58,949 nucleotides of DNA, taken from Escherichia phage ECO95 1-6-1. Of the stretch, positions 25,305 to 27,434 are shown in pieces. The stretch lies in the sequence record OR845257. One strand, written 5' to 3'. The position numbers and the translations under genes are program-made. The notes under the pieces are model-generated. The model saw nothing but the letters and a program-made list of their open reading frames with translations. It did no database searches and had not been told where the DNA came from. Positions within the stretch are counted from its first letter, which is position 1; the number at the start of each line of letters is the position of its first letter.

Positions 25305-27434
25305 TCAGTACACAAAGCGGCAAGTGATTTGCACCCGATGTTTCCGTGGTGGCTGCGGCATTTCGTACATCGACTTGTCGCGCATCATTACCTGCTCAAG
25401 TACCTGACGGACTCGTAGCGTGGATTGGGGAGCATCTTTGTCTGGGTAATTAGCTTTATCGGCATAGTGCTGCAAAACTTGAGACACTTTTGCAAATGAT
25501 TGCGGGACGTCCTTGTCAGGGTATTCCGCCGTCATTGATACATGCTGAATTACCTGCTGAACCGCAAGCGGTTTGTGCAGTGTGCTCCAATCCGGGTAAG
25601 ACGCATCCTGTGCCGCCTGCTGAATGATCTGGCTGACAATAAGCGGCCGGAACATGGTACCGGGATCAGGGAAATCGTCAATCTGCGCAACGTGTTCCAA
25701 TACCTGATTTACAATCGCGTCCGACGTCGGCAGGTGGACGTCCGGATAGTCGGCCGGGATCGCGATGTGCTCCAGCACCTGATTGACCGTCAGGTGGGAT
25801 ACCGGGACAGTCGGGTCAGGGTACGTCGCGCGGAACGCCACTGGCTGCATCACCTGACGAACATGGATACCGGACTCGGCGACTTCGCCCGGAGGCGGCA
25901 TGTACTGGTACCGCGTCACCAGTTCAACAAATTGCGCCAGCGGAGCGTGCGAGATCGGGAGCCGCAGCGGTTGGGCTTTCACCACCTTCTCTAAGAACTG
26001 CGGCACGATCTGAACCTTGCTCGCTTCCCACATGTCGTTCGGGTCTTCGTAGTCCAGCGCTTTCATGACGTGGTACGCCGTGGCCGCACTAACGATGGCC
26101 GACGTTGTAGGGATGCCCGGGTCAGGGTAGTCCGTTGCCTGCTGCACCACCGACATGCGAACAGCGTCAGCGCGCGACCACACCAGCAGGTTAATCGGAG
26201 GCGTGTACGCTTCCGCCCGCACCGCATAGCCGCGTACCTGTTTAACGCGCGTCCGAGACAGCACCGGGAGCAAGTCAGACTTGACCAAGAACTGAGACGA
26301 AACATGTTTGGTGCGCATCGTGGACAGCGGGATGGATCGTTGGTTATCGCTAAATTGCAGCACCAGCGGCGTCAGGGACTTCGCACGCGTGTAACTGATA
26401 GGAAGCGACACCTGATACTCGCAAACAGCGTACGACGTCACTGCGGCCGCGTGCTCGACGCCGACAGTCGGGTCAACGAAGTCCGCCGGGATGACAGCCT
26501 GTGACAGCGCCTGCGCGGCAAACACGTTTGACCGGGGCATCGGGATCGGCAGCGCGGAAACGGCCTGCGACAATTCCTGCGCCACGCGGGTCATTGAGCG
26601 CGGCAGACGTTCAACCGGGCGCTTCTGCGCGGCCAGAACCACGTTCGACTTCACGGACGCAGGCGTCGTGTACATCGGCAGCGGATGGGCCTGAACCACC
26701 AGCGTCGATTCATGGCGAACGAACACACCAGACGTCGGGACGTACGGGATGTCGATCGACTGCAATACCAGATTCCAGACCTGCTTCGTCCGGGTCTTCG
26801 ACCACATTTCATCCGGCAGCGGGAAGTCACCGAGCGTCGCGGCCACCACGGCAAACGACCACGCCGATTTCACCATGTCGTACGAAATGGTCACGATAGG
26901 CGATGCCAGAACGGACAACGTCACCGCCTGCTTCACGATGTTGTAGGAAATCGGGTCATCGATCGGCCGCTGGACAATGGCGTAATTCCACAACGTGTAC
27001 AGACTTTCCGGAGAAATGACTTCCGACAAAGGCGGTACGACGTCGTGCTGCGTGACATACTCATATACCGCATCTGCGTAAAGCGGTGGCCGTTCCGTGG
27101 CCGCCTGACCGATAGCCTCGCAGATCATTTCGGCCGCCATAAATTGCGGCTCTTTGACCAGCGCTTCGCAAATCATTGACGATGCGCGGATCTCCATCTT
27201 TTGAATCGCCAGCACTTCGCCGACCAGTCTGGAGGCGCGGAAGATGGACGGCAATTTACCGTCCCACTGCAAAACCTCCCCGAAGTTTTTCGCCGCGTCC
27301 ATGTTCAATGCGGAAATGGCTAACGCTTCCCCTACACACCGGGACAGGTATGTGAGTTTGGGCTTCTCGCCATTCCACTGCAAGGCTTCGCCGACCAACT
27401 TGGCCGCGCTGATACCTACGTCTTCATCAGCCAC
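25305..27434 (-). CDS. repeat-rich tail fibre-like protein (tandem ~25-aa YPD...VxQVL(E/Q)H repeats)
   Basis: 709 aa; at least 6 degenerate tandem repeats in the C-terminal third plus N-terminal VGEALxx repeats; at the distal end of the tail module. Confidence 0.5.
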   Translation of the reverse strand: MADEDVGISAAKLVGEALQWNGEKPKLTYLSRCVGEALAISALNMDAAKNFGEVLQWDGKLPSIFRASRLVGEVLAIQKMEIRASSMICEALVKEPQFMAAEMICEAIGQAATERPPLYADAVYEYVTQHDVVPPLSEVISPESLYTLWNYAIVQRPIDDPISYNIVKQAVTLSVLASPIVTISYDMVKSAWSFAVVAATLGDFPLPDEMWSKTRTKQVWNLVLQSIDIPYVPTSGVFVRHESTLVVQAHPLPMYTTPASVKSNVVLAAQKRPVERLPRSMTRVAQELSQAVSALPIPMPRSNVFAAQALSQAVIPADFVDPTVGVEHAAAVTSYAVCEYQVSLPISYTRAKSLTPLVLQFSDNQRSIPLSTMRTKHVSSQFLVKSDLLPVLSRTRVKQVRGYAVRAEAYTPPINLLVWSRADAVRMSVVQQATDYPDPGIPTTSAIVSAATAYHVMKALDYEDPNDMWEASKVQIVPQFLEKVVKAQPLRLPISHAPLAQFVELVTRYQYMPPPGEVAESGIHVRQVMQPVAFRATYPDPTVPVSHLTVNQVLEHIAIPADYPDVHLPTSDAIVNQVLEHVAQIDDFPDPGTMFRPLIVSQIIQQAAQDASYPDWSTLHKPLAVQQVIQHVSMTAEYPDKDVPQSFAKVSQVLQHYADKANYPDKDAPQSTLRVRQVLEQVMMRDKSMYEMPQPPRKHRVQITCRFVY

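Follow-up and report, generated by a model that had tools for sequence, protein, structure and literature searches.

The gene considered here lies on the minus strand of a 58,949-nucleotide stretch of DNA from Escherichia phage ECO95 1-6-1 (sequence record OR845257), the whole of which is called the window, and it encodes gp36, a protein of 709 aa named after its counterpart in phage Chi. gp36 is a tail-fibre module protein with a previously undescribed repeat architecture, for which sequence and profile searches of Pfam, NCBIfam and the PDB gave no match; it is very probably a virion component of that module, as judged from the presence of a homologue in purified particles. As for its function, we lean, by a little over even chance, towards gp36 being a low-copy, elongated terminal component of the flagellum-binding tail-fibre module, the latter being the marker of flagellotropic Chi-like siphophages.

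The window DNA is a Chivirus genome, and in megablast searches the 2130 bp of the open reading frame (ORF) matched dozens of Chi-like Salmonella phages at 98-100% identity; at the protein level, gp36 had 93% identity with CHI_36 (709 aa) of the phage Chi reference genome, and its orthologue in phage YSD1 is YSD1_35. The ORF called in the original prediction was borne out, since it starts with a GTG codon that follows a good Shine-Dalgarno sequence (Table 1), and the N-terminal residues MAD are kept in distant homologues in the family alignment. gp36 belongs to PHROG 7226, of unknown function, and to no other family, the match being full-length (phrog_7226, E = 0, 1287 bits, profile positions 1-667/667). 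The recorded annotation of Chi gp36 and YSD1_35 is only "hypothetical protein", and a literature search by locus names retrieved no relevant paper, the sole mention of the family being one row of a supplementary table, that of gp49 of phage JS26.

JS26 is a flagellum-dependent, Chi-like Serratia phage, whose CsCl-purified virions were analysed by liquid chromatography-tandem mass spectrometry (LC-MS/MS; Malone et al. 2021, PMC8754663). Its gp49 (YP_010000066; 23663-25786; 707 aa) is a full-length homologue of gp36 (BLASTP E 1e-38) and belongs to the same family: both proteins have six C-terminal [FY]PD units, a terminal strand and a gene position before the lysis genes, and they differ in that the overall identity is 28% and the N-terminal repeat region of gp49 is of a different type. 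According to Table S6 of that study, gp49 was found in the purified virions with 68 unique peptides, 1241 peptide-spectrum matches (PSMs) and 87.9% coverage, and gp50-gp56, including the counterparts of the LamG-like genes, were all detected (PMC8754663). When the tabulated PSMs are expressed per residue, gp49 had a value of 1.76, the J-like hub one of 2.2, the distal tail protein 2.7, the portal (12 copies) 7.9 and the major tail protein 37; gp49 is therefore at about the same level as the trimeric tail-tip proteins of JS26. On these tabulated data, the structural nature attributed to the protein in the original prediction is supported, through the homologue.

Regarding the repeats, the C-terminal part of gp36 contains six [YF]PD units that begin at aa 538, 563, 588, 613, 638 and 663, in an exact 25-aa register. 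The BLOSUM autocorrelation at lag 25 was 1.81, against a maximum of 0.06 over all lags in 300 shuffles, and a hidden Markov model (HMM) of the unit scored each of the six at 35-46 bits, the top of 138 decoys reaching 8.9. In the wider family (526 units), the consensus is [YF]-P-D-[PK]-x-h-P-x-S-x-h-x-V-x-Q-[VL]-x-[EQ]-x-V-[AV]-h-x-D-x; the modal number of units per protein is six, and distant homologues have 5-10. The six units of gp36 share 48% identity in DNA and 39% in protein, and Tandem Repeats Finder, applied to the DNA, detected no array matching them; this low DNA identity and the lack of a detectable array indicate that the repeats are ancient and have been maintained by selection on the protein.

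The N-terminal part has units of another type, four with the motif GE[AV]L and two with CEA[LI], spaced by 16-21 aa; the autocorrelation at lag 37, which corresponds to a double unit of 20 + 17 residues, was 0.88 versus a shuffle maximum of 0.07, and hhalign detected no relation between these units and the C-terminal unit profile (P about 0.3). As for the region between the two ends, the family alignment revealed Ser residues, invariant or nearly so and mostly in the context P-x-S, that recur like the rungs of a ladder at intervals of 20-28 residues between aa 141 and 671. In a profile-versus-profile self-comparison, 285 window pairs exceeded the best of 20 column shuffles, and among these pairs are some that connect aa 273-308, 435, 493 and 520 with the regular [YF]PD units. 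When sliding windows were compared with the unit profile by hhalign, the P values at aa 436, 492 and 520 lay between 1e-4 and 2e-5, and those at aa 272 (2e-3) and 344 (6e-3) were weaker. The middle of gp36 is, as judged from its sequence, a degenerate continuation of the C-terminal repeat family, traceable back to about aa 270. Profile-profile methods were needed for this step: HMMER searches with unit HMMs, the iterated version included, recruited only the six regular units, and hhalign in self-mode returned nothing. Laid out on its anchors, the protein has about 30 units with a spacing of 16-28 aa, and in the 13 residues that follow each anchor the hydrophobic moment lies at 80-100 degrees, a periodicity that is helix-like and not strand-like.

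The original prediction had described two families of short repeats, one made of VGEAL-type units at the N-terminus and the other of at least six units of approximately 25 aa in the C-terminal third. Both families stand far above the shuffle maxima and are thus statistically supported, and to speak of two families is fair, given that no relation was detected between the N-terminal and the C-terminal units. The six N-terminal units were confirmed by the lag-37 signal and the six C-terminal ones proved exact; the block of the latter, however, spans only the final 21% of the protein, and it is with the weaker upstream units that the array extends to at least a third. The description was therefore correct for both ends and incomplete for the whole, because about 30 units span the entire protein.

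Structure prediction did not return a global fold. The AlphaFold2 (AF2) monomer model built with 23 sequences had a predicted local distance difference test score (pLDDT) of 28 and a predicted template modelling score (pTM) of 0.16, and with 90 diverse sequences these values rose to 43.6 and 0.25. In the latter model, each N-terminal unit contributes one beta strand (six in all, pLDDT 50-69), a short low-confidence helix begins 0-5 residues after 16 of the 18 middle anchors, and the last 20 residues have the top confidence (pLDDT 61-71). The composition of gp36 is nevertheless that of a folded protein, with a grand average of hydropathy (GRAVY) of -0.04, 11.8% Val and 2.3% Gly; because no global fold was predicted despite such a composition, we infer that gp36 acquires its fold only by oligomerising or by binding to a partner. 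Foldseek searches with the AF2 model found nothing significant in the PDB, and in BFVD they returned only the family of gp36 itself.

Known repeat folds were considered and set aside. A beta-solenoid was not supported: the best Foldseek matches in the PDB were bactofilin and left-handed beta-helix (LbH) structures, with E values of at least 0.5 and TM scores of at most 0.30, obtained with a low-confidence model. The triple beta-spiral of adenovirus and reovirus shafts is built from repeats of 15-16 aa with a Gly/Pro turn, and the gp36 units have 25 aa and a helix-like periodicity; the N-terminal units of 17-20 aa are predicted as beta and lack the conserved Gly/Pro turn motif.

As for its distribution, only 99 clusters of the gp36 family (at 50% identity) were found when 1.84 billion representatives were searched exhaustively with a profile, and a second, word-indexed homologue search with a broad alignment recovered the same proteins. 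The isolated phages that encode a member of the family are all Chi-like and infect Salmonella, Escherichia, Proteus, Providencia, Serratia, Hafnia, Cronobacter, Erwinia or Enterobacter; Klebsiella contributes at most one record. The single Klebsiella record seen with gp36 is Phraden, whose host is K. aerogenes, a flagellated species, while K. pneumoniae is immotile (PMC12264135). The J-like hub is present in 26 Klebsiella records, at most one of which has gp36; in SAKp11, a Yonseivirus with a short hub (758 aa), a 259-aa protein and one 1355-aa "tail fiber protein" replace gp31-36, and the locus contains no gp36-like sequence. This restriction to Chi-like phages of motile hosts, and the lack of the gene block in Klebsiella relatives that are not flagellotropic, suggest that the gp36 family is linked to flagellotropism.

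The gene order is also maintained. In the loci L017, L022, L023 and L024, the block is constant and consists of the J-like hub, a DUF2793 protein, three to six LamG-like paralogues, the gp36-like protein and the lysis genes; the gp36-like gene is always the last of the block, even at about 25-30% identity, and in distant loci it tightly abuts the preceding LamG-like gene. Outside this context, a protein of 1536 aa (P0110; L019 10001-14611) encoded on a 229-kb tailings-metagenome contig combines an F5/8 type C lectin domain with gp36-like repeats fused behind it, a glycine-rich domain being matched more weakly, below the threshold, and the N-terminus of this protein has no similarity to gp35; since the contig has the size of a jumbo-phage genome, the gp36 repeat module exists outside Chi-like phages, too. 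No gp36 prophage was found in the GTDB genomes, where the sole match was a 44-kb contig (L004, JBEBPQ010000029.1) in a metagenome-assembled genome (MAG) of "Advenella kashmirensis", 99% identical to the gp36 gene and almost certainly of phage origin, placed in the MAG by a binning error.

Other database records that contain the gene deserve a comment. In Salmonella phages 37 and 35 (NC_029045 and NC_048632), the gp36 gene is split or frame-shifted (2129 nt versus 2130 nt) and annotated as "putative capsid protein | site-specific recombinase", likely through a sequencing or annotation error. Finally, OR844949, OR850062, OR849445, GU169904 and other records named as Staphylococcus, Enterococcus or Listeria phages include Chi-like sequence, 90-99% identical, which probably reflects contamination or mislabelling.

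Whole units are gained and lost within the family. The 731-aa variants, such as those of phage Utah and of the Salmonella-derived P0002 and P0003, contain a near-perfect tandem duplication of 66 bp, equivalent to one 22-aa unit, so that their megablast matches are 66 bp longer; this duplication is recent. In the N-terminal region, both the number and the type of the units vary across the family. The tolerance to gain and loss of whole units fits a linear, solenoid-like or fibre-like build and not a globular one, and the term "fibre-like" of the original prediction is, on these grounds and for the lack of a compact predicted fold, suited to an elongated modular protein; it stands as plausible only, the fibre role being one that we infer.

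Sequence divergence is unevenly distributed along the module. Among 33 close relatives, the most variable stretch of gp36 is aa 26-125, with up to 72% of the sites variable, and the regular repeats and the tail hardly vary. Cross-genus identity to the window proteins is 24-46% for gp35, 29-36% for the gp36 N-terminus, 43-58% for its middle and 53-67% for its C-terminus, and it reaches 69-89% for the N-terminal part of gp30, gp31, gp33 and gp34. gp35 and the N-terminus of gp36 are accordingly the fastest-evolving parts of the module, a pattern typical of a host-contacting end.

Turning to the fibre itself, its length is 220 nm (PMC4342425), and by simple arithmetic a chain of 709 residues measures about 106 nm as a pure helix and, when fully extended, about 240 nm. 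The hub protein, gp30, has an extra globular domain past its J-like part, in that residues 851-1106 duplicate residues 425-700 (E 1e-19), and its last 126 aa are acidic, with 29% Pro and a Trp-rich motif at the end; by standard geometry, this extension seems too little for the whole 220-nm fibre. Because gp30 looks too short, the fibre is proposed to be a multi-protein assembly that includes gp36. In the proposed arrangement, gp36 would be a linear string of about 6 beta-type units, about 18 degenerate units, 6 regular 25-aa units and a conserved C-terminal strand, each degenerate or regular unit consisting of one Ser-capped amphipathic segment and a Pro-rich linker. It would probably be present as one trimer per particle, the trimeric state being presumed, and would probably supply much of the distal, thin and flexible portion of the single long fibre, which winds around the rotating flagellar filament. 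Docking to the other proteins of the module would occur through the conserved C-terminal repeats and tail of gp36, and the variable N-terminus, together with gp35, would face the host; this polarity is a guess, as is the mode of binding, and the position in the fibre and the contact with the flagellum are, like the trimeric state, presumed. Whether gp36 forms the shaft of the fibre is close to an even call.

Several points weigh against this assignment. The virion evidence comes from a homologue with 28% identity and not from Chi itself, and the copy number of JS26 gp49, roughly 3 when scaled on the portal, is a crude spectral-count estimate from the tabulated data. Both AF2 models are of low confidence, and the regular C-terminal repeats are predicted as coil. 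The polarity of conservation, with the C-terminus kept and the N-terminus variable, is opposite to that of most phage fibres. Finally, immunogold labelling assigned the long fibre to YSD1_29, the equivalent of gp30, as reported in PMC12264135; other papers name gp31 as the fibre by annotation.

The last point leads to the alternative that survives best, even if we hold it to be unlikely, namely that gp36 is a tail-tip virion protein outside the long fibre, such as a short fibre or an anchor for a secondary receptor (lipopolysaccharide or AcrAB-TolC), and that the long fibre is made of gp30 and/or gp31-35. Presence in the virion and membership of the module fit this alternative equally well, and the assignment of the fibre to YSD1_29 in the literature speaks for it (as related in PMC12264135). 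However, in the Chi structure described in the same report the N-terminal part of BH2P (that is, gp30) is compact and its C-terminal region is too flexible to be analysed, and no PDB chain matches gp36 (PMC12264135 for the structure). Moreover, no protein of the module is longer or richer in repeats than gp36, and for 220 nm the extension of gp30 looks too short. In the 2024 cryo-EM work of Sonani on Chi, the tail tip reportedly consists of only four proteins.

With a lower probability, gp36 might be an extended strut or ruler that runs along other fibre proteins (the C-terminal part of gp30 and gp31-35), with one unit per partner site, and that sets or stabilises the fibre as nebulin does on actin. 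The lack of an autonomous predicted fold, the regularity of the units with their invariant anchor residues, the tight abutment to the LamG-like gene in distant loci and a copy number similar to that of the partner proteins would all suit such a strut; on the other hand, the length of gp36 (531-934 aa) and the count of LamG-like paralogues (4 to 6) do not scale with each other in L022, L023 and the window.

Assembly functions and a location in the head fare much worse. That gp36 is a non-structural chaperone or scaffold for the tail fibre is very improbable: its gene is downstream of the fibre genes and the last, as for many fibre chaperones, and no fold is predicted, but the JS26 homologue is in the purified virions with 88% coverage at about the level of the hub, going by the published table. 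Known fibre chaperones, such as lambda Tfa and T4 gp38 and gp57A, are far smaller than 709 aa, and a small chaperone absent from the mature virion is contradicted by the size of gp36 and by the abundance of its homologue in the virion mass spectra. A capsid or head-associated role is the least credible of all and is rejected as an annotation artefact: the label "putative capsid protein" occurs in the family only in the phage 37 record and in the JS26 table, where no role is discussed (PMC8754663), while the gene closes the tail module distally, a long way from the genes of the head, the PSMs per residue indicate a low copy number, Pfam, PHROG and PDB searches found no capsid-family similarity or profile, and the Chi/YSD1-type capsid is described as consisting of a major capsid protein and auxiliary proteins (PMC12264135).

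Within the preferred assignment of gp36 to the flagellum-binding fibre, a more specific and rather improbable version would make it the flagellum-gripping element, that is, a multivalent belt of three extended chains, each unit of ~22-25 aa touching one flagellin along a groove of the filament; each short amphipathic segment with its Pro-rich linker would cover roughly 5 nm if part-extended. If true, the sliding grip of a "nut on a bolt" would result from about 30 contacts, each weak and matched in register, and gp36 would be a nebulin-like viral reading of a periodic host polymer, by a repeat fold without known relatives.

Comparison with known systems yields only partial parallels. The T4 long tail fibre is formed by consecutive gene products (gp34-gp35-gp36-gp37) joined end to end, with the most variable, host-contacting part at the distal end. 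The Chi module may resemble it in this multi-gene, end-to-end organisation only: there is no sequence similarity, and T4 has six lateral fibres whereas Chi has a single central fibre with a conserved C-terminal end. With the segmented trimeric coiled coil of T4 fibritin, the gp36 units, going by their consensus, would share short amphipathic helical segments, beta-branched residues at a/d-like positions (V13, V/L16 and V20) and intervening loops; however, the gp36 segments would cover only about two heptads, there is neither a foldon nor homology, and AF2 predicts no helices in the regular C-terminal units. By analogy, the 35-mers of nebulin on actin and the 22-mers of apolipoprotein A-I are also Pro-bounded amphipathic tandem units, of ~22-25 aa in gp36, with no stable fold alone; homology is lacking here as well, and the binding of gp36 to a periodic partner, the flagellin lattice, would be hypothetical.

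Table 1. Position of gp36, of its repeat regions and of the adjoining features in the window.
Feature	Position	Strand	Basis or remark
gp36 coding sequence, 709 aa	25305..27434	-	ORF list; = Chi gp36 / CHI_36, YSD1_35; PHROG 7226
Shine-Dalgarno-like AAGGGGG	27439..27445	-	4 nt before GTG, 9 nt past gp35 stop; sequence read directly
N-terminal VGEAL-type units, six of 16-21 aa, aa 9-118	27081..27410	-	autocorrelation, alignment
Middle region, aa 119-537, about 18 degenerate units of 20-28 aa	25824..27080	-	conserved Ser anchor P-x-S-x3-h-x-Q
Single 22-aa unit, aa 372-393	26256..26321	-	tandemly duplicated in 731-aa variants (family alignment A1, columns about 452-473)
Six in-register 25-aa [YF]PD units, aa 538-687	25374..25823	-	autocorrelation, unit HMM
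Limits of the [YF]PD units	25749-25823, 25674-25748, 25599-25673, 25524-25598, 25449-25523, 25374-25448	-	
Conserved C-terminal tail, aa 688-709, ...PPRKHRVQITCRFVY	25308..25373	-	nearly invariant in family alignment A1
gp30, J-like hub	32448-36338	-	= YSD1_29, PDB 8vjh_A
gp31, DUF2793	31708-32448	-	
gp32, paralogue of gp33/gp34	30691-31698	-	
gp33, paralogue of gp32/gp34	29718-30680	-	
gp34, paralogue of gp32/gp33	28685-29704	-	
gp35	27444-28670	-	9 nt between gp35 stop and gp36
Terminator-like hairpin, 8-bp stem, 5 G-C pairs, T-run	25264..25284	-	in the 47-nt gap from the gp36 stop to the first lysis-cassette gene

Regarding the neighbouring genes (Table 1), gp32, gp33 and gp34 have 24-36% mutual identity (E 1e-21 to 1e-65), and gp34 has a distant copy in the C-terminal half of gp35 (E 3e-4); weak Laminin_G_3 or ConA-like matches were obtained for the genes in 27444-31698 (minus strand) and for those of distant loci. 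gp35, especially in its N-terminal half (aa 1-200), has 66-84% identity between Salmonella phages that share 93-99% identity in the adjoining genes; gp35 is a hot spot of recombination or diversification and likely a determinant of host range.

On the other side of gp36, the hairpin suggests that the tail operon ends there; it should be noted that terminator-like sites in the region are not above shuffle expectation in number, so that only the position and the quality of this hairpin count. With gp35 ending 9 nt before it, the hairpin and the lysis genes after it, and its homologue in virions, gp36 can be regarded as the last structural gene before the lysis cassette, as originally predicted. 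In the cassette, the 117-aa protein before the endolysin (24904-25257, minus strand) is labelled "Rz-like spanin", yet it is in the place expected for a holin, and it has one transmembrane segment and a long hydrophilic tail. A separate, overlapping pair of i-spanin and o-spanin follows the endolysin (23936-24283 and 23806-24153; lipobox AVSGC), and the endolysin ends at its C-terminus in a hydrophobic segment.

In conclusion, phage Chi has served as the model of flagellotropic phages since 1936, and as the protein of the 220-nm fibre with which it holds a rotating filament the literature names gp30 (YSD1_29) or, by annotation, gp31. The present analysis points to an unstudied protein of about 30 units, found in the virion of a homologous phage, whose gene block is present in the examined Chi-like phages of motile hosts and absent from their Klebsiella pneumoniae relatives. 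gp36 and gp35 are therefore targets for host-range mapping, for the engineering of flagellum-targeting phages and for the structural study of an orphan repeat type.

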